Shown here in pieces: positions 37,515 to 51,984 of a stretch of 63,140 nt of DNA. The notes below the pieces were generated by a model, which saw only the letters and a program-made list of their open reading frames with translations, did not search any database and was not told where the DNA came from. Within the stretch, counting starts at the first letter, position 1; each line of letters begins with the position of its first letter. A program made the position numbers and the translations under genes. Origin of the DNA: Candidatus Saccharimonadia bacterium (lineage in GTDB: Bacteria; Patescibacteriota; Saccharimonadia; CAILAD01; CAZGYV01); contig JAYRII010000006.1 of the NCBI GenBank assembly GCA_041906885.1, forward strand, positions 1 through 63,140. The letters are read 5' to 3'.

Positions 37515-37766
37515 ATGAGTAAAACTATCAATATATCATTACCGGAGGAGCTAGTTAAGAAAATTGACCAGCTGGCCAAGAGCGAGTATGCCAGTCGGAG
37601 CGATTTTATTCGTGAGACGCTAGTGCGCCGCATCAAAGGCCAGCGAATTGTTGATGAATGGGGTGACGTGCTTGGTGAGTGGAACGAAGGCGTTGATTTG
37701 CGTGATGAACATGGCCGAGGCATGCCAGCTAAGCAACTGCTTAAAGCCATAGAAGAAATAAATTAA
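37515..37766 (+). CDS. ribbon-helix-helix (CopG/Arc/MetJ-type) antitoxin
   Basis: 'INISLPEELVKKIDQLAKSEYASRSDFIRETL' RHH signature. Confidence 0.8.
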   Translation: MSKTINISLPEELVKKIDQLAKSEYASRSDFIRETLVRRIKGQRIVDEWGDVLGEWNEGVDLRDEHGRGMPAKQLLKAIEEIN

Positions 37767-37772
37767 AGCCAG

Positions 37773-38018
37773 ATGAGTGACAAGGCAAAGAAGTTTCTAG
37801 CTAAGCTTAGTACTAAGGAGTTGGCCAGAGTTCGCGCGATCCTGAGCAAGATTGCTAACGATGATCGAGCAGGTCTTGACGTAAAGTCACTTAAAGGGAG
37901 GCCGGGCTATATCCGAATTCGAGTTGATCGGGTGAGAATAATATGCCTAAAAGTCGGTGGTGAGTACGAAGTGTTGCACATCACCAATCGAAACGAGAAG
38001 ACCTATAGGGACATGTAA
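37773..38018 (+). CDS. RelE/ParE-family toxin
   Basis: 81 aa with 'LKGRPGYIRIRVDRVRIICLKVGGEYEVLHITNRNEKTY', matching the ParE/RelE core pattern. Lies 6 nt after the antitoxin gene. Confidence 0.7.
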   Translation: MSDKAKKFLAKLSTKELARVRAILSKIANDDRAGLDVKSLKGRPGYIRIRVDRVRIICLKVGGEYEVLHITNRNEKTYRDM

Positions 38019-38138: not shown

Positions 38139-41120
38139 ATGGCCCAAAAAGATAAGTCTAAAATCGAACCATCAGCAGCCACTAATACGCTCAGTGATTC
38201 TGAACGTGAAGGACTTGATGTAAAAAACAACGAGAGTAAGATCCGCCTGCAAGCCAAAGGTGTTTATTTTGGTATAGTTGTACTTATAGTGGTTTTTTTA
38301 GCAATTGGCATAACATGGCTAATTCGTGGTCCACTATTAGGGCTTTTTGAGTCATCTTCCGGTATTGTTGCTAGAGTCGGTAACAAGGTCGTTACTAAAG
38401 ACGACTATAATGCATTCGCACCTGCTTACACGAAGTTTGTTCAGTACGGTGACGGTAGCAAAATATCAGATGTGGAGGCCAAAAGGCAGGCATTGAACTT
38501 TTTAATCGATGAAAAAGCACTTGAAATTGAATCTGAAAAAACAGGGATTAAGGTTGATGAGGATGATGTTAATAAAGTATATCAAGGTACCGTGACGCAA
38601 CTTGGTGGTGAGGCTATCTATGCAGCCGGGGTGAAGAGTATGTATGGATGGACTCCGGAGCTAACCAAACGGACGATTCGTAAAAATTTACTTGAAAAAA
38701 AATTAGCTAGCAAGCTCATTGCCGGTCGCTATGTCTATGGCTCTTTTGTCCGTTGGGACTACGATGGAGATGGCATCCCTGCCGAGCAATTAGCTCAAGC
38801 TAAGGAGGGGGCTCGTAAGGCACTTGAGACCATTCAACCGCTCTATAATCGAGGTGCTAGCCAGGAAGAAATCAGTAAGGCAATGGTTAAATTACGTAAT
38901 GATAATCTACAATGGCGAGATAATGTAGTTGGAGTTAACAGTATCAATATTAGCATCAATGATGAAACTGCAAAAGAAATCTTTCATGAGCCACAAGATT
39001 GGCAATCGATTTCTAAGTTAAATAAAATAGGTCAGGATACCGGTGTGGTAGAATCGGCGGCAGGTTACTTTTTCATCTATCGCTTGACGCGTATAGACAA
39101 AGGTCGATACAACAGTTGGTCTGATTTTTATGAGCAGGCAGAGAAAAAGGCTAAAATCTACTCTTACGGTCAAACTGCAAAGTCGGTGGCTTTTGGACTG
39201 CTCAAGTCAACCATTGGTGAAGCGCGTGCCCAGTCGTTGATCTGTCGTGATTCTAAAAAGGGCAAATTATCTATAATACAGCGATTTCTGGGTGTTGGCA
39301 TAGCTGGAGCTGAAGGACCCATTAATTGTGGCAATCATTGGAGCCAGGTTTGGGGTACAGTATTGAGCGGTGCCACCTGGCTGCCTATTCCAAGTGCTAG
39401 GGTAGATTTTGCAGCCTCTGATCGCACACCAACATGTCGCCCGGTGCCATCGGAGGGTGAGACCGATTGGGAAGCGTTTGACTTCACAGTCTATACGAAC
39501 AGTGGAGGTACGTTTGTTGCTGGTCCAGAGCCGACTGGATCAAGTAGAAAGATAAGTTGCTGGACACGTTGGAATACAACCATTTCAGCAGCGGGGTATA
39601 AGTCAGCCAGTTGGAATGATTATTCTGTAGGACCAAATGGCAGTTCTCTTTGTCTGGATCGTAGCGATCCTGCTTGGACACCACCAAAATTCTTTGGTTC
39701 TTATCCAAATTTGAATACTGATGGCAATTGTCAGTTATTCTTGGAGCCAAACTTGCCACCACCACCTCCCGCTTATGGTAACGTGCAGTTTATATCAAAA
39801 CTAACAGATCCATACTATTCTAGTTCATCTTATTATGGGGATGAGTGTTTGATTGGTGGTTGGGCAGTTGATGGTTCTGCTCCTAAATCTTCTATACCAA
39901 TAGATATTTATTTTGATAGCGATAAAACTGCTGGAGCATCTGCAACAGTTAAGGTACCAGCTGCCGATAAACCATGGAAAGGAGTCCAAGGGGATCTTAG
40001 TAAGTATGGTATCGATCCGGGGCCGGATAATGGACCAGGTCATGGGTTCTTTATCAAAGTGCCTGATCATCTCAGAGACGGTAAATCGCACTTTGTTTAC
40101 GCCGGTGGCATTAGGCCGCTTGGTAATTGGTGGCTAAGTGGCTCACCGTTATCGTTTACTTGCATGCCGGAACCAAAATATTACCCTTGGCTGCAGTCTC
40201 TCAACGGTGATGTAGTAGCTGGTGGCAATATTACCGGCCAGAAAATTGGCGTGGCTGGTAGTCGGAGTGCGTCTGCGATAGACAAAGAAGCATCATATTT
40301 AGTGATTATTAGCGCAATCAGCAAGTCCGGTAATGATTTTTGCAGTACTAATGCCTACTCAATTGGTGATCTCGGCATTAATTGCAAAGCGAGCACCTAT
40401 GCTGTTAATAGCAAGTACATGGACTATGGCTCGGTCGCTAGTGGTGTCGAGCAGCTGTGGAATAAAAATGGTGCCGGTGCGGGCGGCATTTGTACGACTG
40501 GTATGAGCAAGTATTTGACGGGTAATTTGAGCTCATCCGGCGTTAATCTTAATCACCCCGGAGGCAATGATCTGTCCGGCGGCTGTGCCAATGGCAAGAT
40601 TTGGAAGGCAACCGGAGACTATCAGTTGGGTGACAAGACCTTTGATACTGGCCGAGCAACCTATTGGGTTGATGGTAATCTGGCCTTGACGGGCAATATT
40701 CTAGCTAGTCTTAAATCGAATTATGGCAATCCCAAAGACGTGCCAAGTCTCGGCATCATAGTCGATGGTGACATAACGATCGATCCGAATGTCACTGAGA
40801 TCGATGCGAGTTTATTTGCTACTGGCAAGATTTACACTTGTCACCCAGCTGGACTTACAACTAGCGGTACAGCCTATTACAGGACCAATGGCCCAATTTG
40901 CAAGAAAAGCCTCAGTGTCAATGGCTTGATGAGTGCAATTGGCGGGTTTACACTTGGCCGGACATACATCACTAATTTCTCGGGTGGTTCTGGTAGTCCA
41001 GCTGAGAAGTTGGTGGCAAGTGCTCAGGCAATGGCCTTCCCGCCACCAGGCTTTGGTGATGACTCCAGTGTCACAATTCAAAACTTTAAATACCTAGGTG
41101 AAGCTGCTCCTCGGTTCTAA
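38139..41120 (+). CDS. large membrane-anchored protein: N-terminal TM, SurA_N/PpiD-like chaperone region, and a C-terminal module of about 445 aa shared with the 42190 gene
   Basis: 993 aa with TM 'GIVVLIVVFLAIGITWLI' and 'ARVGNKVVTKDDYNAF...ALNFLIDEKALEIESEK'. The C-terminal module (39783-41120) is paralogous to 42818-44472. Confidence 0.7.
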   Translation: MAQKDKSKIEPSAATNTLSDSEREGLDVKNNESKIRLQAKGVYFGIVVLIVVFLAIGITWLIRGPLLGLFESSSGIVARVGNKVVTKDDYNAFAPAYTKFVQYGDGSKISDVEAKRQALNFLIDEKALEIESEKTGIKVDEDDVNKVYQGTVTQLGGEAIYAAGVKSMYGWTPELTKRTIRKNLLEKKLASKLIAGRYVYGSFVRWDYDGDGIPAEQLAQAKEGARKALETIQPLYNRGASQEEISKAMVKLRNDNLQWRDNVVGVNSINISINDETAKEIFHEPQDWQSISKLNKIGQDTGVVESAAGYFFIYRLTRIDKGRYNSWSDFYEQAEKKAKIYSYGQTAKSVAFGLLKSTIGEARAQSLICRDSKKGKLSIIQRFLGVGIAGAEGPINCGNHWSQVWGTVLSGATWLPIPSARVDFAASDRTPTCRPVPSEGETDWEAFDFTVYTNSGGTFVAGPEPTGSSRKISCWTRWNTTISAAGYKSASWNDYSVGPNGSSLCLDRSDPAWTPPKFFGSYPNLNTDGNCQLFLEPNLPPPPPAYGNVQFISKLTDPYYSSSSYYGDECLIGGWAVDGSAPKSSIPIDIYFDSDKTAGASATVKVPAADKPWKGVQGDLSKYGIDPGPDNGPGHGFFIKVPDHLRDGKSHFVYAGGIRPLGNWWLSGSPLSFTCMPEPKYYPWLQSLNGDVVAGGNITGQKIGVAGSRSASAIDKEASYLVIISAISKSGNDFCSTNAYSIGDLGINCKASTYAVNSKYMDYGSVASGVEQLWNKNGAGAGGICTTGMSKYLTGNLSSSGVNLNHPGGNDLSGGCANGKIWKATGDYQLGDKTFDTGRATYWVDGNLALTGNILASLKSNYGNPKDVPSLGIIVDGDITIDPNVTEIDASLFATGKIYTCHPAGLTTSGTAYYRTNGPICKKSLSVNGLMSAIGGFTLGRTYITNFSGGSGSPAEKLVASAQAMAFPPPGFGDDSSVTIQNFKYLGEAAPRF

Positions 41121-41195
41121 AATTCGATATCCTAGAGTTGTTCTGCACTCATTGCATTTGCTCTCGTGCTCTATTATCATAAGAACTAAGTAATT

Positions 41196-42197
41196 ATGGT
41201 AAATCTACCAGACAAGAGAGAGCAGAGGAAACTAGGCCTACATAAATCGCATGTCTTGGCTTGGGGGCTTGGTATTGTAGTGGTGTTGTTGACTGTTCTA
41301 GGTAGCTACTATTATCTACAAAATCAGAAGAGGCAAGAGAACGCCAAGTACGCCTTCGCGATCAATGAAAAAAAATATTCCAAATCAGAGCGCCAAAGTG
41401 TTTATATAAATTCAATCAGGAACAACCTGAGTACTGATGACTTTAATCGCAAATACTTAGAGCTAAAAAAACTGCAGTATGTCGCTGAAAAGAACAATAT
41501 TGTGATAAATAAAGATTTGCTAAATAAAAAAATGGCAGAAATTTACCCAGATAAGAAAGATAAAACTTTTGATCAACTAGATATTGTTCAGCAAAAATCA
41601 ATCTATGATAATGTTTTTATTTATGCAGCCTTTGCTAATACCAAAGGCCAATACGAAGGAACTATTTTTGTTTTCCCATTCGCTCGGCATATTACAGATT
41701 ATGAGGGTCATCTCAGTGCTAAAGTGGCAGACTCGAATAAGTTTGGGATTATTTCGGCTTATGATCCAGCCCAAGTTGAGGTTGATAAACGCTATGCCCA
41801 AGAAAGAGCAAAATATTATCATGATGGTCTCACTAATGGATCAATCAACGAGTCAGAGGCTTTAAAGGAGATAATGGCTGATAAAAAGCTTGCAAACGTA
41901 AACTCAACCAATGAAAGTACAGCATTTAAAAATGACGGTACTGTAAATTGGCAAGACATGATTAGGATCGAAGGCGCAATTGATTATATAAAGTCATTAA
42001 AAAGTCCAACTTTAAGTAGCATTCAAACCAGCAAGACAGATGTTGTTAACAACAGTCAGAAAAGCAATGTTGAAGCTCAATTCTATTTTGTCAAACTAAA
42101 TAAGGCACAACCCGCTAAAAATGGAGTAGATTTTACAACTCTGAAGAAACAAATTGACGAACAAATCAAACAACTCAAGGTGACTATCTATGAGTAA
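41196..42197 (+). CDS. membrane-anchored hypothetical protein, AT-rich (about 35% GC), SurA_N-like start
   Basis: 333 aa with one N-terminal TM segment. Its stop overlaps the start of the next gene. Confidence 0.6.
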   Translation: MVNLPDKREQRKLGLHKSHVLAWGLGIVVVLLTVLGSYYYLQNQKRQENAKYAFAINEKKYSKSERQSVYINSIRNNLSTDDFNRKYLELKKLQYVAEKNNIVINKDLLNKKMAEIYPDKKDKTFDQLDIVQQKSIYDNVFIYAAFANTKGQYEGTIFVFPFARHITDYEGHLSAKVADSNKFGIISAYDPAQVEVDKRYAQERAKYYHDGLTNGSINESEALKEIMADKKLANVNSTNESTAFKNDGTVNWQDMIRIEGAIDYIKSLKSPTLSSIQTSKTDVVNNSQKSNVEAQFYFVKLNKAQPAKNGVDFTTLKKQIDEQIKQLKVTIYE

Positions 42198-44472
42198 ACT
42201 TAGTATCGTGAAAAATATAATTACGAGACTAGGGTTAATTATAATTATAGTTGTCGCTTATCAAGCAGTGTTAATTTTCGTCGGTGCTCCTAAAGCTCAA
42301 GCAAGCCATGTTTGTGGTATTGAACCTGGTGGTGGTGATTCAAATGCAAAGATGGCTTATGGAGGGCTAGTTATTAACTTAGTGGTTCAGAGGTCTGATG
42401 GCTCTACATTTGAGGCCCTTGGCAATATAGGGATGCAATTTACTAGTGAGAATAATATGCCACCTGGGTTATGGGGGGCGGAGCTTGCACAGTATAAAAA
42501 ATTAGGGTTTGATCCTCATATGTCTGCTGGCACTATACCACAAACTGGAGGACATGATTTAAGTATGAAAAATTGCTGGTTTACTGGTGATGGCGCTGGT
42601 GTGGTATTAGGAAACGGGCATGATGATGAAGATTGGGTGATCGATTGTAATGCTAGCGTGCGTGGTGGAGATCCAGGGGGAGCTTGGTATACCGGTTATG
42701 GTATTCCTGATGGTGCTAAGGGCGGTGGTTGGTGGGATAATAAGATGATAAACGCTGCTAATGGCACAACAACTGTTTTTCAGCTTCGATATCATGAGCC
42801 GATACCCCCTAAAAACGGCTGGGCAGTATTTGTACCGAAGTTGACGGATTCATTTTTTAACAGCACACCTTACTATAATCAAGATTGTCTAATCGCTGGC
42901 TGGGCGGCCGATACCTATAGTGATCCATACAGAAGCATATTTCCGACCAGATCAGTCGCAATACGTATTTATTGGGACGGTGCGGGGTTGCCGGCAGCTT
43001 ATGTAGATATACCAGCCGCTAATCAGCCCTGGCCTGGCGTCCAACAAGTCATGTTGGATCCCCCTTATGGTGTGAATGTAGGAGGAGATAAAAGCCCTGG
43101 ACATGGCTTTATGGTGCAACCACCTGCTTATTTACAGGATGGTAATACACATATGGCTTATGTCTATGGTATCAGTCCGTATACTGGCGATTGGCAGCTA
43201 CAGGCCTCACCGGTATCATTTCGCTGTTCGGCTGCTCCAACCGAATACGATCCTTGGCTGCAGACTGGTAATGGTAGCGTCAATGCCTGGGGTAAGATAG
43301 TTGGGCAAAACTTTGGCGCTCCAAGCTTTGGCCAGCGACCCAATCAGTCCAATCCTACTGATCCAGTCGAATCAACCTATCTAGTAATGGCAGCCTTGCA
43401 GCGTGGAGATAAATCTAACACTAGTGCTCAAACTGGCAAGTTCTGCAGTAATAATCAATACATTCTTGGTGCTAATTCATCGGGCTGTAATATGTTTAAT
43501 CGCTACAAGTTTGACCTGACCGAGAGCTATGTGGCTGGTAATACATTTGGCTCGCCGCTAGGATATGTGATGCAAAATCCCGGCTCGACAGTTTCTAATC
43601 TACTCAATGGCACAAACGGCGAGATTGTTGATATGATGCACACCAAGCTAGGAGTTTGGCAAGCAGATGTCAGAAATTGTAGCCCTGGCTGGATTAGAGA
43701 GCTTAGGATGGATTCCGCTGGACTAAATGGTAATAATTTTGGTGGCAGTGGAACCGATACGCAGCTGTTTCGTCCTTCAACAATTACTGTACCTTCCATC
43801 TCAGATTATTATCCGACCTCTGGGGTTTATGGAGCTAATTTAAATTTATCAGGTGGACCTTACTGTTACTCATCAGTATTAGTTACTACGCCATCATCTA
43901 GTACGAATCGATTCGATATTGATCTGGGTACACGGACATTTGTGTCGGGCGGACGAGTGACATATTGGGTAAGACCTCAGGGTAGTGCCCCTGGTTCTTA
44001 CAATGGTAGAGATACTTATATCAAGTCAAATATAAATGTGAACTCCACTTCTAGCTACACGCATCCTAATCAAATTCCTCAGATCGCAATTGTTTCAAGT
44101 GGGGATATATATATTGACCCAGATGTCACTAATCTCGATGCCAGCTTATATTCGACAGGCAAGATCTTTACTTGCTACCGTCCAGAACCAACCACGCATA
44201 GTTCTGCGGCTGCCACTATATACTATAAAAACAATGGCCCAGCTTGCAAAAGACAACTCACCATTCGTGGTAGTGTGATGGCGCGCAGTGGCTTTGAATT
44301 TGGCCGGACATACTTTGCAAATCCCGGTACATTTTATAGTTCTGCCGAACAAATCTACATGACAGGTCAAGCCTTAGCCTTCCCACCACTTGGTTGGAAT
44401 AAGGATAATCTGACCAATAAGGAAAGCATGAACGTGCGTTACCTTGATAGTAATGAAGGACCTAGGTTCTAG
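42190..44472 (+). CDS. large secreted protein, paralog of the C-terminal module of the 38139 gene
   Basis: 760 aa with a signal peptide ending 'APKAQA|S'. Shared blocks include 'KLTD..F/Y', 'GWA.D', 'SPGHGF', 'DPWLQ', 'IDPDVTNLDASLYSTGKIFTC', 'NGPACK' and 'ALAFPP', and it ends in 'PRF'. Confidence 0.7.
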   Translation: MSKLSIVKNIITRLGLIIIIVVAYQAVLIFVGAPKAQASHVCGIEPGGGDSNAKMAYGGLVINLVVQRSDGSTFEALGNIGMQFTSENNMPPGLWGAELAQYKKLGFDPHMSAGTIPQTGGHDLSMKNCWFTGDGAGVVLGNGHDDEDWVIDCNASVRGGDPGGAWYTGYGIPDGAKGGGWWDNKMINAANGTTTVFQLRYHEPIPPKNGWAVFVPKLTDSFFNSTPYYNQDCLIAGWAADTYSDPYRSIFPTRSVAIRIYWDGAGLPAAYVDIPAANQPWPGVQQVMLDPPYGVNVGGDKSPGHGFMVQPPAYLQDGNTHMAYVYGISPYTGDWQLQASPVSFRCSAAPTEYDPWLQTGNGSVNAWGKIVGQNFGAPSFGQRPNQSNPTDPVESTYLVMAALQRGDKSNTSAQTGKFCSNNQYILGANSSGCNMFNRYKFDLTESYVAGNTFGSPLGYVMQNPGSTVSNLLNGTNGEIVDMMHTKLGVWQADVRNCSPGWIRELRMDSAGLNGNNFGGSGTDTQLFRPSTITVPSISDYYPTSGVYGANLNLSGGPYCYSSVLVTTPSSSTNRFDIDLGTRTFVSGGRVTYWVRPQGSAPGSYNGRDTYIKSNINVNSTSSYTHPNQIPQIAIVSSGDIYIDPDVTNLDASLYSTGKIFTCYRPEPTTHSSAAATIYYKNNGPACKRQLTIRGSVMARSGFEFGRTYFANPGTFYSSAEQIYMTGQALAFPPLGWNKDNLTNKESMNVRYLDSNEGPRF

Positions 44473-44570: not shown

Positions 44571-45611
44571 ATGGCATTATTTCAAGAAGATGATAATTTT
44601 TTTGGACTTGATCTGGGGGCCAGTAGTGTCAAGCTTGTCCAGCTTAAAGATATTCATGGCAAACCCAGCTTACTTACCTATGGCGACATTGAGGTACCGT
44701 TTGGTTTGCTGTCGAGTGACTCCCCAGTCGATCTAGACAAGCTTTCGGATATCATCCGGAAGTTATATAGTGATGCTAAGGTTTCTACCAAAAACGTCGT
44801 TGCAGCTTTGCCGGCTTCGTATGGTTATGCAGCTGTCATTACGACACCAAAACTATCGCACGACGAGCTTGCTAGCTCGATTAGATTCCAAGCTGATAAA
44901 TATATTCCGATGCCAATCGATCAGGTCAAGCTTGATTATAAAGTACTAGGGCCAAAAGGATCGGGCGAGACTAACGAGCAGGAAGTGCTTTTAGTCGCAG
45001 CGCCGACTTCACTAGCTAATAAATATCTCGGGATCATCCAAAAAGCTGGTCTCGAGCTGATGGCTCTTGAGGTGAATGCTATCTCTGAAGCGCGCGCACT
45101 GATGACAGCGCAGCCCACTACAGCAATCATTGTTGATATCGGCTCGATCGCGACTGATCTGGCGGTGGTCAATAACCAGGTACCGCGACTGATTCGCTCA
45201 CTCAATATCGGCTCGCGGTCGATTACTCGGGTGGTCGGGCAAAACCTTGGTTTGGCTCAGGATCAAGCTGAGCAGTTTGTCAAGAAATTTGGCATGTCGC
45301 AGGCTAAGCTAGAAGCCCAAGTCTATAAAGCGATTAAACCGATTGTTGATAACCTAGCTGATGAAATCAAAAAGTCAATTCAGTTTTTCCAGGAGCACAA
45401 CGCCATGAAAGTCGAAAAGATCATCCTGACTGGTGGTACGTCGGCATTGCTAGATTTACCACCGTACCTGGCTAATGCCACTGGTGTGACAGTTGAGATT
45501 GGCAACCCTTGGATCAATGTCAGCTATCCGCACGAGCTGGAGCCTAAACTAAGTTCGATATCATTGAATTACTCCGGCGCAGTTGGACTGGCCATGAGGG
45601 GGATGGGTTAA
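44571..45611 (+). CDS. pilM: type IV pilus assembly protein PilM (actin-like ATPase fold)
   Basis: 'FGLDLGASSVKLVQL' N-terminus and '...ILTGGTSALLDLPPYL', followed by pilN- and pilO-like genes. Confidence 0.85.
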   Translation: MALFQEDDNFFGLDLGASSVKLVQLKDIHGKPSLLTYGDIEVPFGLLSSDSPVDLDKLSDIIRKLYSDAKVSTKNVVAALPASYGYAAVITTPKLSHDELASSIRFQADKYIPMPIDQVKLDYKVLGPKGSGETNEQEVLLVAAPTSLANKYLGIIQKAGLELMALEVNAISEARALMTAQPTTAIIVDIGSIATDLAVVNNQVPRLIRSLNIGSRSITRVVGQNLGLAQDQAEQFVKKFGMSQAKLEAQVYKAIKPIVDNLADEIKKSIQFFQEHNAMKVEKIILTGGTSALLDLPPYLANATGVTVEIGNPWINVSYPHELEPKLSSISLNYSGAVGLAMRGMG

Positions 45612-45612
45612 G

Positions 45613-46251
45613 ATGCAAGTACTTATTAATTTAGTACCAGAAGCAAGGCTGGTTAAGCTCAAGCAAAAGCGTAACAAACGCTTACTGACTACGCTGACTA
45701 TTCTGACTGCTATCGTGATGGCAACTATTGTTGGTACTTTGATAGTGCTTATTATCGCCAATACGGCACTTTATGCCGCCAACGAGGGCGCTATTAAGGA
45801 TAAAAAGTCCGAGATTGCCGAGATCAATAAAAGTAATATGGAGCAGAATGCCGCTACCCTGCAAGAACACTTAGCCTCGTTTAAGACCTTAAATGATAGT
45901 CGCTTGTATGCCAGTAAGGTTTTTGCTGAATTTAGTGAAACGATTCAGCCTAATGTGACCGTCAAGACTTTTGATATTGCCGATGGATACGTCGTCTCAG
46001 TCACTGGCACAGCTAAATCCAACCAAGACGTCAGTAAGTTTGTCAACGCCATTGAAGAGTATGGCACGACTTACAAGAAAAAGCCGGATGCCGACCCGAC
46101 CGATTATTTTACTGGAGTTGATATTGCTTCAGTGGGCAAAGGTGGCGATAGTGGTGGCGATGGCGTGTCATTTTCCTTGACCTTTAAAGCTAACGAAAGC
46201 GTATTTAGTAAAACTAATCCAACCAAGAGTGGGCAAAATAATGGGCATTAA
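45613..46251 (+). CDS. pilN: PilN-like pilus assembly protein
   Basis: 'INLVPE' start, a single TM segment, and its position after pilM. Confidence 0.65.
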   Translation: MQVLINLVPEARLVKLKQKRNKRLLTTLTILTAIVMATIVGTLIVLIIANTALYAANEGAIKDKKSEIAEINKSNMEQNAATLQEHLASFKTLNDSRLYASKVFAEFSETIQPNVTVKTFDIADGYVVSVTGTAKSNQDVSKFVNAIEEYGTTYKKKPDADPTDYFTGVDIASVGKGGDSGGDGVSFSLTFKANESVFSKTNPTKSGQNNGH

Positions 46252-46987
46252 AACTGATGAAAAACAATTGAAGCAAGCTAAAAAGGTGCAGACACCCAAG
46301 ACGGAGGTGTCGTTGGCCCAAGCTCAGACAGCTAAGCATTTCTATCTGATTGCTAGCTTGATCTTGGTTGTCATCATAATTGGTGGTGGCTACGCGTCGT
46401 ATCGGCTTTTTACCAACTATATCCATAAGCTTAATGAGATAAAGGCCCAAAATAAGTTGGTCAGTAGTCTTGATCAAAAAATAAAAGACCTTGATGCCTT
46501 GAAGGTCACCTACGCCCAGATTACTGATTCTAAGGGCGGTACAGGCAGTGATGCTGATGCCATTTTGCGCGCCTTGCCTGTCACAGAAGATTATAAATCA
46601 CTCATCGCTATGCTAGAGAATATGGTCAATGTCAGCGGGGTGTCACTTGATTCGGTGTCCAAGACCAGTGCTTCAGGTGCAACCGCAGCACCGGCCGGAA
46701 GTAGTGGTAGTACTGCTACAACGCCGGGCGCGTCTGGTAGTGGCACGACTGGCGCCCAATCGCCCCAGCCAGTAGTATTTTCGGTTAGTATCAGCGGTCC
46801 TTACGATAAAATTATTCGATTTCTTGATAATACCGAGAAATCTGCTCGAGTGATTAACTTTAAAAGTATGCAGATTTCTAATGATGGTGGCAGTGGTGGT
46901 ACTAATTCAGTCAAGGCCAGTCTGACTATGGAAACCTATTATCAAGATAAAGCCAACATCGAGTCAACTCAGGAGGACTTGAAGTAA
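46241..46987 (+). CDS. PilO-like pilus assembly protein
   Basis: Single TM segment, a coiled-coil, and a Ser/Gly/Thr/Ala-rich linker. An alternative GTG start is at 46229. Confidence 0.5.
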   Translation: MGIKTDEKQLKQAKKVQTPKTEVSLAQAQTAKHFYLIASLILVVIIIGGGYASYRLFTNYIHKLNEIKAQNKLVSSLDQKIKDLDALKVTYAQITDSKGGTGSDADAILRALPVTEDYKSLIAMLENMVNVSGVSLDSVSKTSASGATAAPAGSSGSTATTPGASGSGTTGAQSPQPVVFSVSISGPYDKIIRFLDNTEKSARVINFKSMQISNDGGSGGTNSVKASLTMETYYQDKANIESTQEDLK

Positions 46988-47238
46988 TGAAGCGAAAAGA
47001 TATCGTATCTCTAGTGATCGCAATCGTCATCTTCATGGTAGCAGCGGGTGTGATCTATCTCTATGTCGTACCACCACCAAAAGATACTGGTATTAAGGTA
47101 GAAGTACCACGCAAAGTTGTATCTGAGTTTGATATGTCAACCATCAATGGTGTCTTACTCAACAAAGACAAGGTACAAGACTTTACGCCTGATATCAATC
47201 CAGATCCTAATGCCAAGCCGAAGCCAATTGTTCAGTAG
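46987..47238 (+). CDS. small single-TM protein in the pil operon
   Basis: 83 aa. Start overlaps the upstream stop (TAATG). Confidence 0.5.
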   Translation: MKRKDIVSLVIAIVIFMVAAGVIYLYVVPPPKDTGIKVEVPRKVVSEFDMSTINGVLLNKDKVQDFTPDINPDPNAKPKPIVQ

Positions 47239-47247
47239 GAGGCTGCC

Positions 47248-49047
47248 ATGTTGACGAGCGATATGGAAAACAAAATCGAGGAATTTATCCTCAAGTACGA
47301 CCTTGTTGGCAAACAAGATCTAAATAAGCTGCGTGATGAAGCTAAGAAGCAGAATAAGCCCCTCGTCCAATATCTGATCGAAAAGGGTGCCATCTCCGAA
47401 GAAGATAGTGTCAAAATTAATGCTCTTATCTCGCATATTCCATATGTTGATCTGAAGAATAAGACCATTGAGGCTGATATTCTAAATCTAATCCCCAAAG
47501 ATCTCGCACAAACCTATATGGCGGTGCCGTTTGGTCTTGTCGATGGCCAGCTCAATGTCGCCATGGTAGATCCAACCAATCTGCAGGCGGTTGACTTCTT
47601 GACTCGCAAAACCGGTCACTTTGTCAGTGCTTTTATGACAACCAAACAAAACGTTATGCGCATTATCGACACCTATCAGACGACGCTTGACGTTGACGTA
47701 GTACAGGCGCTTGGGCGAGCTGCCACCGAAGATAAGACTGATGTGGGAGTCGAGGGCATGGCCAAACAAAAAGCTTCCAGTCAGGTAACTGAGGTGCAAA
47801 ATTTTATCCAAGACGCACCGATTACCAGGGCTTTAAATACCATCTTGGAGTATGCTATCGAGTCAAAAGCCTCAGATATTCACATTGAGCCGCGCGCTAA
47901 AGATCTCAAGATTCGTTTTCGGATTGATGGCCTTTTGCAGGACACCATGACCCTGCCGAAGACAATCGAGCCAGCCTTGATCTCACGCATTAAGATTCTG
48001 TCTAATCTTAAGATTGATGAGCACCGCATCCCTCAAGATGGGCAGGCCAGCTACGTAATTAGTCATCGCGAGGTCGACTTACGTATCGCGATCGCACCGA
48101 TTACCTATGGTGAGCAGGTGGTGATTCGTGTTCTAGACAAATCCGATTCATTGATCAACTTAGACTCCTTGGGCTTTAAAGGTCGATCGTATCGGCTGAT
48201 TCAAGAGGGTATGAAAAAGCCACACGGTATGATTCTCTCAACTGGCCCGACCGGCTCGGGTAAAAGTACCACGCTCTATGCTGTCATCCAGGAGATCAAG
48301 AATGTCAGCCTGAATATCGTCACTCTCGAAGATCCGGTGGAGTACAAAATGGACGGTATCAATCAAATCCAAGTCAATACAGCGGTTGGTCTGACTTTTG
48401 CGTCGGGCCTGCGCTCGATTTTGCGTCAGGACCCGAATGTCGTGATGGTTGGTGAGATCCGTGACCAAGAGACAGCCGATCTGGCCGTCCAAGCGGCTCT
48501 GACAGGCCACATCGTGCTCTCGACATTACACACCAATTCGGCTTCTGGGGTTTTGCCGCGTTTACTCGATATGAAGGTTGAGCCGTTTTTAATCGCCAGC
48601 ACAGTCAATACTGTGATTGGTCAGCGGTTAGTCCGAAAAGTTTGTGATTCATGTAAGAAGGCTTTTTCATCGACTCAAGCTGCTACCGATATGATCAATA
48701 AGGCTTTGAGTCTAGTTTTACCCAAGAATGAGGCTGAGGTAAAGGCAAAAATGGAGGAACTTGGTTATGATAATTTGCCAATTTACAATCAAAAAGCTTA
48801 TACTTTATACAAGGGTGAGGGCTGCAAGGTGTGTCTCAATGGCTACAAAGGCCGCACCGGTATTTATGAAGTTTTTGCGATGAATGATGCCATGGAGAAA
48901 CTGCTTGTGTCGCACGCCACCACGACCGATATACAAAGACAAGCTCAAAAAGACGGTATGCTGACCATGCAACAAGATGGCTTACTCAAGGTTTTGGCTG
49001 GTATCACAACGATTGAGGAAGTGGCTCGCGTCGCCAGTGATTATTAG
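47248..49047 (+). CDS. pilB: type IV pilus assembly ATPase PilB (GspE family)
   Basis: 'GMILSTGPTGSGKSTTLY' Walker A, 'MVGEIRDQETA', 'LTGHIVLSTLHTN', and a C-terminal CxxC...CxxC cluster. Confidence 0.92.
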   Translation: MLTSDMENKIEEFILKYDLVGKQDLNKLRDEAKKQNKPLVQYLIEKGAISEEDSVKINALISHIPYVDLKNKTIEADILNLIPKDLAQTYMAVPFGLVDGQLNVAMVDPTNLQAVDFLTRKTGHFVSAFMTTKQNVMRIIDTYQTTLDVDVVQALGRAATEDKTDVGVEGMAKQKASSQVTEVQNFIQDAPITRALNTILEYAIESKASDIHIEPRAKDLKIRFRIDGLLQDTMTLPKTIEPALISRIKILSNLKIDEHRIPQDGQASYVISHREVDLRIAIAPITYGEQVVIRVLDKSDSLINLDSLGFKGRSYRLIQEGMKKPHGMILSTGPTGSGKSTTLYAVIQEIKNVSLNIVTLEDPVEYKMDGINQIQVNTAVGLTFASGLRSILRQDPNVVMVGEIRDQETADLAVQAALTGHIVLSTLHTNSASGVLPRLLDMKVEPFLIASTVNTVIGQRLVRKVCDSCKKAFSSTQAATDMINKALSLVLPKNEAEVKAKMEELGYDNLPIYNQKAYTLYKGEGCKVCLNGYKGRTGIYEVFAMNDAMEKLLVSHATTTDIQRQAQKDGMLTMQQDGLLKVLAGITTIEEVARVASDY

Positions 49048-49076
49048 AAATTATTTAATAGTACAAGAGGGTAAAA

Positions 49077-50147
49077 GTGGAAAGTAAAAGTCTAAGAATC
49101 GAACCGTATCTAGACCAAGTCATTAAACGAGATGCGTCCGACTTGCACTTGCAGGTTGGCTTACCGCCAATGCTCAGAATTGATGGCGCGCTCAAACCAG
49201 CCGAAGACTCAAAAGAACTGACCGAGAAAGATATTGAGACTTTGATTTATGCTCTCCTCGACGAGGAGCAGAAGCAGGTTCTGATTCGCGACAAAGAGAT
49301 TGATTTCTCGTTTGCTTATGGCGATCTGGGTCGCTTTCGTGTCAACTCATTCCACGAAAAGGGCACGATCGCTACGGCCATGCGCCTCATTCCGACTAAA
49401 ATTCGCACCCTTGATGAGCTTGGTATGCCCAAGGTGGTCAGTACTATGACTGATTACCCGCGCGGTCTGGTACTTGTGACTGGCCCGACTGGTTCGGGTA
49501 AGAGCACCACCTTAGCTGCTATGATTGACCTGATCAATACCAATAAAGCGATGCATATCATTACGATCGAGGATCCGATCGAATACCAACATCATCACAA
49601 GAAGTCAATCGTTGTCCAGCGTGAGGTGCACTTCGATACAGTTAGCTTCGGTGCGGCCCTGCGCAGCGCTCTGCGTGAAGATCCCGATGTGGTCCTGATT
49701 GGTGAGATGCGTGATCTCGAGACGATCGCCACAGCTATCACTATCGCTGAGACCGGCCACTTAGTACTAGCAACTTTACACACCAATTCAGCCGCTCAAT
49801 CAGTCGATCGTATGATCGATGTCTTTCCACCACACCAACAGCAGCAGATTCGTATTCAGCTCTCGGGCGTGCTGCAAGGTATTGTCTCGCAGCGCCTCAT
49901 CCCGATGGTTGGGGGTGGTCGAATCGCCGCTGCCGAAGTCATGATCGCCACACCAGCGGTGCGCAATATCGTGCGTGAGAGCAAAACTCACCAACTTGAG
50001 GCTGTCATTCAGACCGGTGCTGAGCACGGTATGCAGTCGATGGACAAGACTTTAGTTGGTCTGATTCACGAAGGTAAGATCAGTTACGAAGAAGCCAAGA
50101 ACTACGCCATTGACCTCGAAGAGCTTGACCGCATGATGAGGAAATAA
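49077..50147 (+). CDS. pilT: twitching-motility retraction ATPase PilT (GTG start)
   Basis: 'LVLVTGPTGSGKSTTLAAMI', 'LIGEMRDLETI' and 'ETGHLVLATLHTNSAAQSVDR'. Confidence 0.93.
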   Translation: MESKSLRIEPYLDQVIKRDASDLHLQVGLPPMLRIDGALKPAEDSKELTEKDIETLIYALLDEEQKQVLIRDKEIDFSFAYGDLGRFRVNSFHEKGTIATAMRLIPTKIRTLDELGMPKVVSTMTDYPRGLVLVTGPTGSGKSTTLAAMIDLINTNKAMHIITIEDPIEYQHHHKKSIVVQREVHFDTVSFGAALRSALREDPDVVLIGEMRDLETIATAITIAETGHLVLATLHTNSAAQSVDRMIDVFPPHQQQQIRIQLSGVLQGIVSQRLIPMVGGGRIAAAEVMIATPAVRNIVRESKTHQLEAVIQTGAEHGMQSMDKTLVGLIHEGKISYEEAKNYAIDLEELDRMMRK

Positions 50148-50161
50148 AACTTCTAAGATTT

Positions 50162-51439
50162 ATGATCGATTTTATTTATACAGCAAGGGAGAAGGACACC
50201 GGCAAGCTTGTCAAAGGCACGATCGCGGCCGATAGTGAGACAGCGGCTGGTCGGCTTTTGATTGAGAAAAATCTCTTTCCGGTTAAGTTTACGCTCAAGA
50301 GTCAGCAAACTATTGCTGGTATCAATGTATCGGGGCTGAGCCGGGTTAGTGGCAAAGACCGGGTCATATTTACGCGGCAATTGGCCACTCTGATCAAAGC
50401 CGGTCTGCCGATCGTCCAAGCACTCTCGACTGCCTCAGAGCAAGTCCAAAGCCAGAAGTTCAAGGATATTTTAGAACGCATCAAGGGCTCGGTCGAGGGG
50501 GGAGCCAGCTTATCCGACTCATTTGCCCAATTCCCGGAGGTCTTTAACCAGACATACATCAGCCTGGTCGCGGCTGGTGAAGCTTCTGGCACGCTCGATA
50601 AGACGCTCGAACGCTTGGCTAGCCAGCAGGAGAAGGAAATGGCTATCATCTCCAAGGTGCGCGGCGCTCTAATCTATCCACTGCTGGTGCTAGCGACCAT
50701 CATCGGTGTCTTGGCTTTTATGCTGGTCAGTGTCTTGCCCCAGATTGCGCAGCTCTATAAGGAGCTCGGTAAGCAATTGCCGCCACTGACATCTGCCTTG
50801 ATCGCTGTGCAGCAGTTCACGACTAAGTTCTGGTGGCTGACACTAGCTATGATCGTCGCGGCCGTGCTGGGCATCAGGGCCTATACCAAGACGCCCCATG
50901 GACGGCGCAACATGGACCGCTTCAAGCTTAATATGCCGGCCTTTAAGACGCTCTTTCGCAAGGTCTATATGGCTCGCTTTACGCGCACGCTCGGCTCGCT
51001 GGTAGCCTCTGGTGTGCCGCTCTTGGAGGCTCTGGCGATTTGCTCTGAGGCTGTTAATAACTTGATCATCAAAGAAATTATTGATCACGCTGCCCAGCAG
51101 GTGAAAGGTGGTAAAGCGCTGTCGCTCACGCTATCGAATAATCAGTATTTCTTGCACCTGGTGCCACAGATGATCAAGATCGGTGAGGACTCTGGTACAC
51201 TCTCGGATATGCTCGATAAGGTGGCTAGCTTCTACGAGGACGAGGTCGACCAGACGGTCAAGAATATCTCGACTATCATTGAGCCAGTCTTGATGATTGT
51301 GCTTGGCTTCATGGTATTTTTCATAATTATCGCTATTCTATACCCAGTCTACTCGCTGGTGGGTGGGGGAATAGGTAGCGGCCAGAGTATAGGTGGCTCG
51401 TCTACTAATACTAGTGGCAGTACTGGGACAGCAAAATAG
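50162..51439 (+). CDS. pilC: type IV pilus platform protein PilC (GspF family)
   Basis: Two GspF repeats ('FTRQLATLIKAGLPI...', 'FTRTLGSLVASGVPLLEAL') and 3 TM segments. Confidence 0.9.
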   Translation: MIDFIYTAREKDTGKLVKGTIAADSETAAGRLLIEKNLFPVKFTLKSQQTIAGINVSGLSRVSGKDRVIFTRQLATLIKAGLPIVQALSTASEQVQSQKFKDILERIKGSVEGGASLSDSFAQFPEVFNQTYISLVAAGEASGTLDKTLERLASQQEKEMAIISKVRGALIYPLLVLATIIGVLAFMLVSVLPQIAQLYKELGKQLPPLTSALIAVQQFTTKFWWLTLAMIVAAVLGIRAYTKTPHGRRNMDRFKLNMPAFKTLFRKVYMARFTRTLGSLVASGVPLLEALAICSEAVNNLIIKEIIDHAAQQVKGGKALSLTLSNNQYFLHLVPQMIKIGEDSGTLSDMLDKVASFYEDEVDQTVKNISTIIEPVLMIVLGFMVFFIIIAILYPVYSLVGGGIGSGQSIGGSSTNTSGSTGTAK

Positions 51440-51518: not shown

Positions 51519-51654
51519 CTTTTATATACGCTTCTATACTCTCGTATAAATAACAAAACTCAAGGAGGAGGTAAGAAATATCATGCAATTAACTAAGAAA
51601 AAAGGTTTCACCCTGATTGAAATCGTTATCGTGCTGGCGATTGCGGCACTGATA
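51519..51654. repeat. left arm of a perfect 136-bp inverted repeat (pilin 5' UTR plus the first 24 codons)
   Basis: Reverse complement of 52445-52580 with no mismatch by eye. Confidence 0.85.
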
Positions 51655-51984
51655 CTTATCATTGTGTTCTTGGCGGTGTCAGGTGCGCAAAGGGAGAGAA
51701 GAAACGACGGACGTAAAAATATCGCTGGGCAAGTGGTTGCAGCTGTTCAAACATTTCAGGGAAATAATGGTGGCGCTTTACCAACAAATGCCTCACCATC
51801 TACCCAGTTGCAAAGTATTGTTATAAATAGAGATGTACCGGGAGTGGGTACTATGACAATTAACGTGTCCGCCCTACCGTCTTGTACGAATACAGGAAGT
51901 GCCATAGTAACATTTAATGGATCTACTACTGTTCGCGCATGTCTAGAAGGTAACGGAACCACTGGATACGACCTTACATTGTAG
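51583..51984 (+). CDS. type IV pilin (prepilin with a G|FTLIE cleavage/methylation site)
   Basis: 'MQLTKKKGFTLIEIVIVLAIAALIL'. Confidence 0.85.
   Translation: MQLTKKKGFTLIEIVIVLAIAALILIIVFLAVSGAQRERRNDGRKNIAGQVVAAVQTFQGNNGGALPTNASPSTQLQSIVINRDVPGVGTMTINVSALPSCTNTGSAIVTFNGSTTVRACLEGNGTTGYDLTL

Follow-up and report, generated by a model that had tools for sequence, protein, structure and literature searches.

Fused and separate SurA_N-like/exported protein cassettes at the head of a Saccharimonadia type IV pilus operon: a candidate host-contact protein family

A contig of a Candidatus Saccharimonadia bacterium (JAYRII010000006.1; the 63,140-nucleotide [nt] stretch analyzed here is referred to as the window) encodes three proteins directly upstream of pilM, at the head of a type IV pilus (T4P) operon: P1 (993 amino acids [aa]), P2 (333 aa), and P3 (760 aa). 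From comparison with related loci, we conclude that the locus is two tandem copies of a two-part cassette. Part A is a membrane-anchored protein with a SurA_N/PpiD-like region, and part B is a putatively exported protein that ends in a conserved module of about 300 aa, running from a PWLQ motif to a C-terminal PRF. The two parts are fused in P1 and are separate and translationally coupled in P2 and P3. A preliminary description of this DNA, made from the sequence alone, had called the region a three-gene module with two giant surface proteins. Its open reading frame (ORF) coordinates ahead of pilM (38139-41120, 41196-42197, and 42190-44472) were exact, but the locus is better read as two copies of one cassette, the first of them fused, and "giant" is an overstatement for proteins of 993 and 760 aa. 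The features of the two cassettes, including the transmembrane (TM) segments and the matches to our hidden Markov models (HMMs), are as follows.

38139..41120, + strand: P1, 993 aa; ORF; fused cassette with partner A and module protein B in a single frame
38139..39167, + strand: A-part of P1, aa 1-343; basic, putatively cytoplasmic N terminus, TM helix, and predicted extracytoplasmic SurA_N/PpiD-like region
38262-38324, + strand: TM helix of P1, ~aa 42-62, from a Kyte-Doolittle scan
39177..39242, + strand: P1 aa ~347-368, 'AKSVAFGLLKSTIGEARAQSLIC'; apparent vestige of the B-part signal peptide, degenerate, where the two parts are joined; aligned by eye
39771..40166, + strand: D2 domain of P1, aa 545-676 ('CLIGGWAVD ... 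GPGHGFF ... DGKSH'); BLASTP block 1; D2 HMM match at aa 542-679
40167..41120, + strand: C-terminal PWLQ...PRF module of P1, aa 677-993; module HMM, E = 3.4e-99; predicted beta-helix and disordered tail
41196..42197, + strand: P2, 333 aa; ORF; free-standing A-part with a TM segment at ~aa 20-40 and an ectodomain of the SurA_N-like family
42190..44472, + strand: P3, 760 aa; ORF; putatively secreted B-part with a signal peptide at aa 1-38
42802..43239, + strand: D2 domain of P3, aa 205-350; BLASTP block 1; D2 HMM match at aa 208-352, E = 1.4e-71 (P3 was in the seed)
43240..44472, + strand: PWLQ...PRF module of P3, aa 351-760; module HMM matches at aa 353-446 and 584-762; BLASTP block 2

BLASTP aligned P1 with P3 in two collinear blocks, residues 528-750 with 191-434 (E = 9e-40, 38% identity) and residues 827-993 with 576-760 (E = 2e-32, 40% identity). 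Judged by these alignments, the paralogy of P1 and P3 is real and far beyond chance, and every collinear motif that had been quoted in its favor lies inside the two blocks. The shared region had been taken for one module of 450 to 550 aa; the homology stands, but the single unit does not. It is made of two separate units, a domain of about 115 to 145 aa that we call D2 and the C-terminal PWLQ-to-PRF module, each of which is found apart from the other in other proteins. The module of P3 is further split between its two conserved halves by an insertion of about 95 aa. As previously stated, no known domain covers the shared region: it has no match in Pfam or NCBIfam, and the module has none among PDB sequences. 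Word-index homology searches returned only three and two close relatives and failed to join P1 with P3, and an exhaustive profile search was used in their place.

D2 follows the pattern GWA.D ... HGF ... DG..H ... C and occurs one to six times in 30 proteins among the matches listed. Some of these proteins lack the module and are encoded away from pilus loci (for example, at locus L036). D2 belongs to no Pfam family, and its sole PDB profile match was a weak one to an alpha-amylase C-domain (E = 0.039). P0015, P0092, and P0128 are among the proteins that bear D2, which looks like an independent, repeatable, extracellular domain.

The cassette structure became apparent in the closest syntenic relative of the window locus, L001. 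Between ychF and pilM, L001 encodes a racemase, followed by a 334-aa TM protein, a 630-aa secreted protein, a 336-aa TM protein, and a 762-aa secreted protein. The genes of each TM/secreted pair overlap. The 334-aa protein (gene A) is homologous to the N terminus of P1 (E = 7e-18), and the 336-aa protein (gene C) is 53% identical to P2; the two are paralogous to each other over their full length (E = 7e-12). The 762-aa protein is the ortholog of P3. The 630-aa protein ends in PRF and is 70% identical to P1, an identity limited to its last 317 residues, with an unrelated N-terminal region of about 300 aa. Since the split genes of L001 match the two halves of P1, P1 is an A-B fusion and P2 plus P3 the same pair unfused. 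Aligned by eye, the P1 junction 'AKSVAFGLLKSTIGEARAQSLIC' corresponds to the signal peptide 'AVATFAVMVGLVLFSPRAQAAAC' of the separate 630-aa gene, which suggests that the junction keeps a degenerate B signal peptide whose functional core has been lost.

Fusion is a recurrent state in this family. P0005, which is 37% identical to P1, is also an A-B fusion. Of the 117 family representatives whose module is full length, a fused A region could be detected in 16 and a late TM anchor in 33. The P1-P3 region shows no differences among three independent assemblies from compost and activated sludge; these identical assemblies and the independently fused P0005 rule out the 993-aa fusion as an assembly artifact or frameshift. 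Separate A-type genes lie directly 5' of module genes in L007, L011, L015, L016, L022 (twice), L024, L027, L031, and L032. In the window, P2 and P3 overlap by 8 nt (cTATGAGTAAa), and the sequence contains no convincing terminator between P1, P2, P3, and pilM. The middle gene had been singled out as AT rich and coupled to the third, and it is both, with a GC content of 35.8% versus 45.6% for the window. Its AT-richness stems from a Lys/Asn/Ile-rich composition and not from third codon positions; the GC content at third positions (GC3) is 0.34 in P2, close to 0.38 in P1 and 0.36 in P3, versus 0.44 to 0.63 in the pil genes.

One hydrophobic TM segment stands behind basic residues in each of P1 (~aa 42-62) and P2 (~aa 20-40), which points to an N-terminal single-pass anchor with the bulk of each protein outside the cytoplasm. 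Residues 34 to 151 of P1 score above the Pfam gathering cutoffs for SurA_N_2 (PF13623; 41.1 bits, cutoff 28.5, E = 2e-10) and SurA_N_3 (PF13624; 34.3 bits, cutoff 27.2, E = 2.7e-8). The earlier assignment of a TM anchor plus SurA_N region to both P1 and P2 therefore holds for P1 and, as regards the anchor, for P2; P2 has no direct SurA_N match. Neither P2 nor P3 matches anything in Pfam or NCBIfam, and direct BLAST of P2 against the P1 N terminus was not significant (E = 0.29). We tentatively place P2 in the SurA_N/PpiD-like group because of transitive homology through the L001 paralogs and because 6 of 11 members of the partner family match SurA_N_3. These 11 members (alignment A6) align collinearly, starting at the TM helix and extending to a conserved Y/F-F-Y-F-V strand close to the C terminus; four also match SurA_N_2 and one matches Rotamase weakly (E = 0.0048). 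The resulting partner HMM covers aa 1-343 of P1 (E = 2.5e-77, with P1 in the seed), and the top four PDB profile matches of partner A are all to the SurA N-domain, weakly (E = 0.1 to 0.7). SurA_N was matched in 8 of 48 sampled members of the module family. P1 and P2 have no Rotamase (parvulin) match in Pfam, and we treat a degenerate parvulin-like pattern, noticed by eye, as no more than a lead.

The exhaustive profile search recovered 1,920 cluster representatives of the module at E <= 1e-3, of which 287 reached <= 1e-10 (clusters at 50% identity). The conserved stretch almost always forms the last 200 to 300 residues of proteins of 400 to 2,200 aa. A PW[LIVMF][QKER] motif occurs once per protein, 290 to 460 residues before the end, in 109 of 152 proteins among the matches listed. 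In an alignment of 30 module sequences (A4), the following blocks are conserved: PWLQ, G[DN]V...GQ, FCS, GR.T, PNL.I.V.G, IDA..YA.GKI.TC, L.V.G, GF.FGR, PAE, FPPPG, and E..PRF. Six Cys are also conserved, and Gly, Pro, Cys, and aromatic residues make up most of the invariant positions. The invariant FCS and PWLQ prompted us to consider a thioester (Cys-Gln) adhesin, which is of the wrong fold class and has nothing in its support. The window proteins have 11 to 14 Cys each, except for P2, which has none.

Signal-peptide-like N termini are found in 74 of the 117 full-length representatives. P3, to which a cleavable signal peptide had been ascribed, indeed begins with a signal-peptide-like h-region followed by AQA|S; its orthologs include P0002 (76% identity) and P0003 (52%). 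The variable part of relatives bears CBM60, B_lectin, He_PIG, and DUF6923 domains and, in one relative, an M64 peptidase domain. P1 and P3 do both end in PRF, as noted before, and so do all three close homologs. The 117 representatives end in PRF (68), PRL plus one residue drawn from [NKQRH] (26), PKF (8), or PQF (3), and PRF thus appears to be a family signature, though its Phe is not always the last residue. As for the suggestion that this tail might be a sorting or processing signal, the motif is conserved family-wide and lacks the pattern of the common C-terminal sorting signals. We found no hydrophobic C-terminal segment of the LPXTG, PEP-CTERM, or GlyGly-CTERM type, the proteins ending at, or one to two residues past, P-[RKQ]-[FLVI]. 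A sortase-type signal is ruled out by the lack of a TM helix and basic tail after the motif. In L008 the end of the module (~40 residues, with PRF among them) is out of frame with the rest of the gene (880-1152 versus 2-925), probably through an assembly frameshift.

AlphaFold2 modeled the P1 module from alignment A4 with a predicted TM-score of 0.74 and a predicted local distance difference test (pLDDT) score of 80 to 94 for residues ~90-270. The model consists of short strands in a right-handed beta-helix with a flanking helix, and the last 17 residues are disordered. Full-length P3, modeled from a five-sequence alignment, was unusable (pLDDT 37). With the module model as the query, Foldseek found nothing in PDB below E = 1e-3. 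The top matches were beta-helices of the DUF3494 family (6bg8_A, E = 5.8e-3, probability 0.99, TM-score 0.35 to 0.45, root mean square deviation about 11 A), and the module and DUF3494 proteins may share a fold class, with a weak similarity at about 12% identity. The beta-solenoid of ComZ (6qvi) was matched with a probability of 0.89 to 0.91 over ~170 columns (E = 0.14 to 0.26, TM-score 0.26 to 0.28), and a viral fold library yielded nothing for the module. No lyase, hydrolase, or tailspike matched it in Pfam, NCBIfam, PDB sequences, PDB folds, or viral folds, nor did any other well-known family of the kind that the preliminary description had named as an alternative assignment.

The genes that follow P3 in the window are those of the pilus machinery.

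44571..51439, + strand: pilM, pilN, pilO, an 83-aa TM ORF, pilB, pilT, and pilC; ORFs labeled from the Pfam matches of the syntenic L001 genes, 68 to 91% identical to L001
51583..51984, + strand: type IV pilin with a KKGFTLIE N terminus; Pfam N_methyl, E = 4.4e-7

We classify this locus as T4P-1 type because it includes the retraction ATPase; T4P-1 is the locus type defined for Nanosynbacter lyticus TM7x (PMC11623550). A degenerate DNA motif for P-W-L-Q-x3-G-[DN]-[VI]-x7-G-Q, searched in one genome per GTDB species, returned 23 stretches, about 17 of them labeled Saccharibacteria or Saccharimonadia; two, from Rhodothermales and Caulobacter, were chance matches without the module. The loci were checked by HMM and phmmer, and further loci were retrieved for distant representatives. 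In 18 loci other than the window (L001, L008, L009, L013, L015, L016, L017, L018, L019, L020, L021, L023, L025, L028, L029, L033, L034, and L035), the module gene is the next gene 5' of pilM on the same strand, at a distance of 26 to 217 nt (mostly 36 to 127). The notion that orthologs might never be linked to pil genes is thereby refuted. The linkage spans module identities down to about 25 to 35%, and the number of cassettes per operon ranges from one to three (three in L033). Eight further loci end before the downstream gene, with ychF on the other side in five of them. The one exception is L024, which has no pilM after its module gene. In this 6.4-kb contig, all ORFs in the 2.5 kb 3' of the module gene (L024:1-2533) are shorter than 80 aa; tblastn detected no trace of pilM there, and Rfam gave no match. 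Decay, a chimera, or noncoding DNA may account for this stretch. The D2 proteins that lack the module are not located at pil loci.

The linkage extends to two members of the candidate phyla radiation (CPR) outside Saccharibacteria, L020, a Buchananbacteria metagenome-assembled genome, and L017, which is labeled Gammaproteobacteria. PWLQT and the beta-helix motifs are retained in the module proteins of both, and the tail is different. These proteins (L020:1131-2813 and L017:4699-6291) start with a Cys-rich 'CGDG.VQ...E.CDD' and several 'GW[AG]WS[DE]N[IL]GWI' repeats and end in '...PPGLGDFAKS.PVWR', not PRF. A very large protein precedes the module gene in both (L020:2817-6878, 1,353 aa; L017:6313-7992, at least 559 aa); it is full of short Gly-rich repeats ('GxGT..P...L[DE]V.G', 'GSTAMG') and looks fiber-like or trimeric-adhesin-like. 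L017, L011 (labeled Bacteroidia), and TXI86699.1 (Chryseobacterium sp.) carry a CPR-type cassette under non-CPR labels, likely as a result of binning errors. A recA-recX ... rpsF-ssb-rpsR-efp ... ychF block upstream of the pil operon is kept in L001, L029, L031, L034, and Southlakia epibionticum (SEML1_0097-0103). As environmental and oral Saccharibacteria share this block, stable synteny flanks the variable cassette region on both sides.

Compared with the pilus machinery, the cassette has changed rapidly. Between the window and L001, identity is 91% for PilM and PilT, 90.5% for PilC, 87% for PilB, 78% for PilN, 68% for PilO, and 70% for YchF. For the cassette proteins, it is 70% in the P1 module, 59% in the P3 module, 55% in the P3 N-terminal region, 52% in P2, 35% in the A-part of P1 (over 142 aa only), and 33% in D2, and the variable region of P1 has been replaced. 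By these identities, the cassette genes evolve much faster than PilM, PilB, PilT, and PilC. A constant C terminus, replaceable N-terminal heads, and a variable copy number are typical of surface proteins under diversifying pressure.

On its other side, the cassette region is bounded by ychF, which is on the opposite strand and is separated from P1 by two small ORFs.

37515-38018, + strand: two small ORFs between ychF and P1, an 83-aa ribbon-helix-helix (RHH) protein, followed by an 81-aa ORF

The RHH protein matches CopG/RHH_1 (E = 1.6e-8). The 81-aa ORF starts 6 nt after it and has no Pfam match, an arrangement reminiscent of a type II toxin-antitoxin pair. The 83-aa single-TM ORF between pilO and pilB (46987-47238, + strand) has no Pfam family and is 76% identical in L001; genes of 83 to 95 aa occupy the same position in L029 and L033. 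By position, it corresponds to the essential 75-aa SEML1_0107 of Southlakia.

Taking these lines of evidence together, we tentatively favor a reading that in our judgment falls a little short of probable: the cassette would provide a chaperone-assisted or tethered, variable host-contact surface protein that is expressed with, and works alongside, a retractile T4P-1. Part A would be an N-in single-pass membrane protein with a SurA_N/PpiD-like portion outside. Part B would be a Sec-exported, Cys-rich, multidomain protein with variable N-terminal domains, D2, a constant C-terminal beta-helix of ~300 aa, and a flexible ...E-x-x-P-R-F tail. We envision that A takes B at the exit of the Sec channel, as a dedicated holdase/foldase and/or as a membrane tether, and that B is displayed outside the cell, where the beta-helix may be a constant structural or docking element. 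The fast-changing N-terminal domains of B would touch the host-cell surface, probably its glycans. With B coexpressed with the pilus, the retractile T4P would pull the cell in, and B would supply or extend binding specificity. The surface or adhesin-type role put forward in the preliminary description agrees with the signal peptide, the many Cys, the lectin and CBM heads in relatives, and the fast evolution; the step from an exported, variable, pilus-linked protein to an adhesin that cooperates with the pilus is one that we infer.

Several observations weigh against this proposal. The N-terminal third of the module was modeled at low confidence, its fold matches are weak (best E = 5.8e-3, TM-score 0.35 to 0.45), and the variable regions of P1 and P3 have no recognizable lectin domain in Pfam. 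Partner A is a TM-only protein of 58 to 91 aa in L028 and L029, and in L035 (2030-2605) a 191-aa TM protein takes its place, with an outside portion that by eye resembles a tetratricopeptide repeat (TPR) region; these partners, which are not SurA-like, weaken a strict chaperone reading of A. The L035 partner resembles YfgM, the TPR partner of PpiD in Escherichia coli, and we regard this as a lead. In cultivated Southlakia, the T4P1 genes are essential and the ychF-pilM junction has no cassette: ychF (SEML1_0103, 102732-103880, minus strand) lies 12 bp from pilM (SEML1_0104, starting at 103892) (PMC10633639, Table S1). The T4P-1 locus of TM7x is likewise described as machinery genes and pilins only (PMC11623550). 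It follows from the Southlakia junction that the pilus does not need the cassette, which is an accessory and not a core assembly factor; the assembly role that had also been suggested for these genes is thus unlikely. Finally, the gap between ychF and the cassette holds unrelated cargo (the RHH pair in the window, the racemase in L001, and an HD protein in L031), and the position of the cassette could partly reflect a permissive insertion site.

A more specific version of the favored reading, which we consider doubtful, casts the PWLQ...PRF beta-helix as a docking domain, specific to Patescibacteria, that loads interchangeable heads (lectin, CBM, D2, or other) onto the T4P, with the PpiD-like partner as its dedicated loader. 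If that were true, swapping or duplicating a cassette at the head of the pilus operon would reset the host range of an episymbiont, in the manner of a cartridge system. Somewhat less plausible still is a PilY1-like pilus-tip adhesin, in which a Sec-exported B would sit with its C-terminal beta-helix on the minor-pilin tip complex and ride the T4P-1, A being a folding factor only. Its appeal lies in the PilY1-like architecture (a Sec signal peptide not of the pilin type, a variable N terminus, and a conserved C-terminal domain), the strict adjacency to the pilus operon, the weak likeness to the ComZ tip-pilin solenoid (6qvi, probability 0.89 to 0.91), and a disordered, conserved tail that could act as a docking peptide. 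It has to contend with the recurrent N-terminal TM-anchor fusion (P1, P0005, and 16 to 33 of 117) in which the signal-peptide core has been lost at the junction. A protein fused in this way would be held at the membrane unless cleaved, and a tip location is therefore hard to square with it. The gene also lies beside pilM, about 7 kb upstream of the pilins, and one to three copies per operon would be unusual for a single tip protein.

We think it unlikely that these are unrelated surface proteins in a permissive ychF-pilM insertion site with no functional tie to pili. Such a site would account for the empty junction in Southlakia, the assorted cargo in other genomes, the varying copy number and content of the cassettes, and their distinct composition (GC3 of 0.34 to 0.38 versus 0.44 to 0.63 in the pil genes). 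Against it, the module gene is always proximal to pilM, co-oriented with it, and 26 to 217 nt away, also in two further CPR lineages whose flanks differ, and it is the D2-only proteins without the module that are found away from pil loci; order and orientation kept across such deep divergence disfavor random cargo. A structural or envelope-spanning accessory of the CPR pilus machine, such as a wall or outer-layer collar beside PilMNO in place of the missing PilP/PilQ, seems improbable to us. The cassette directly adjoins pilMNO, at the place that pilP/pilQ occupy in diderms, CPR bacteria lack PilQ (PMC6744442), and both the high conservation of the C-terminal module and an association that reaches beyond Saccharibacteria would suit such a part. 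Its absence at this locus from Southlakia, whose T4P1 is essential and functional, its hypervariable lectin-bearing N-terminal domains and variable copy number, and its much faster evolution than that of PilM, PilB, PilT, and PilC would not. Most improbable among the alternatives is a host-envelope depolymerase, a glycan-cleaving beta-helix of the pectate lyase or tailspike type that would open a path for contact by the pilus or the cell. A right-handed beta-helix is indeed predicted, and relatives carry CBM and lectin domains and, in one case, an M64 peptidase domain. However, Pfam, NCBIfam, and PDB sequences gave no lyase or hydrolase match, the top fold matches are nonenzymatic DUF3494 proteins and not lyases or tailspikes, and the invariant residues (mostly Gly, Pro, Cys, and aromatics) are not an acidic catalytic set.

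The favored reading, a host-contact protein working alongside the pilus, bears on how episymbionts choose and grip their hosts, for which type IV pili are required. The family is a concrete candidate for a host-specificity determinant in environmental Saccharibacteria and at least some other CPR bacteria, a status that rests on its size (1,920 clusters), its invisibility to Pfam, its position at the operon head, its fast evolution, and the lectin-type heads of relatives. It has been overlooked so far because the two cultivated oral model strains apparently lack the cassette at this locus; all family members with a name in their source are called "hypothetical protein." It also offers a new C-terminal domain family and a new small extracellular domain, D2, and its natural, putative chaperone-client fusions are material for studying protein export in organisms with a minimal envelope.

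Among known systems, PilY1/PilC proteins of Pseudomonas, Neisseria, and Myxococcus are type IV pilus-associated adhesins, large non-pilins with a Sec signal peptide. The proteins described here resemble them in their Sec-type signal peptide, T4P gene cluster, variable N-terminal part, conserved C-terminal domain, and proposed host contact (PMC11623550). They differ in that the C-terminal domain is a predicted beta-helix, whereas that of PilY1/PilC is a seven-bladed beta-propeller. No PilY1/PilC family matched in Pfam or NCBIfam, and no propeller was among the fold matches of the module. The genes here, moreover, lie beside pilM and not in a minor-pilin operon, have a TM-anchored SurA_N-like partner, and occur in one to three copies. 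ComZ, the tip pilin of the Thermus thermophilus competence pilus (6qvi), also combines a beta-solenoid with a T4P-associated protein, but it carries the class III signal sequence of a pilin, and P1 and P3 have no pilin N terminus. We rejected pilin identity for P1, P2, and P3, none of which matches N_methyl, unlike the true pilin at 51583-51984. PilX2 of Nanosynbacter lyticus TM7x, a pilin-like protein with a beta-propeller that is encoded among pilins of T4P-2 (PMC11623550), is likewise a candidate adhesin of a Saccharibacterial T4P with a large accessory domain, whereas the proteins here are non-pilins that head a T4P-1-type operon. The module resembles DUF3494/type 1 ice-binding proteins in its right-handed beta-helix with a flanking alpha-helix and differs from them in having no Pfam Ice_binding match and in its PWLQ N-terminal region, six conserved Cys, and PRF tail.

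Like PpiD, part A has a SurA_N domain behind an N-terminal TM anchor; it differs from PpiD, SurA, and PrsA in having no significant parvulin (Rotamase) domain. In Lactococcus, PrtM is a dedicated PrsA-like foldase encoded beside its client protease PrtP. Part A is likewise matched to a single large exported client: its gene immediately precedes that of the client, is translationally coupled to it, or is fused with it, and this analogy suggests that A and B are a dedicated foldase-client pair. To judge from the Saccharibacterial and CPR pilus literature that we consulted, the domain family, the A-B pairing and fusion, and the conserved position at the start of the CPR pilus operon have apparently not been described before; the general kind to which they belong, a non-pilin surface protein encoded in a pilus operon together with a dedicated SurA/PrsA-type partner, is already known.

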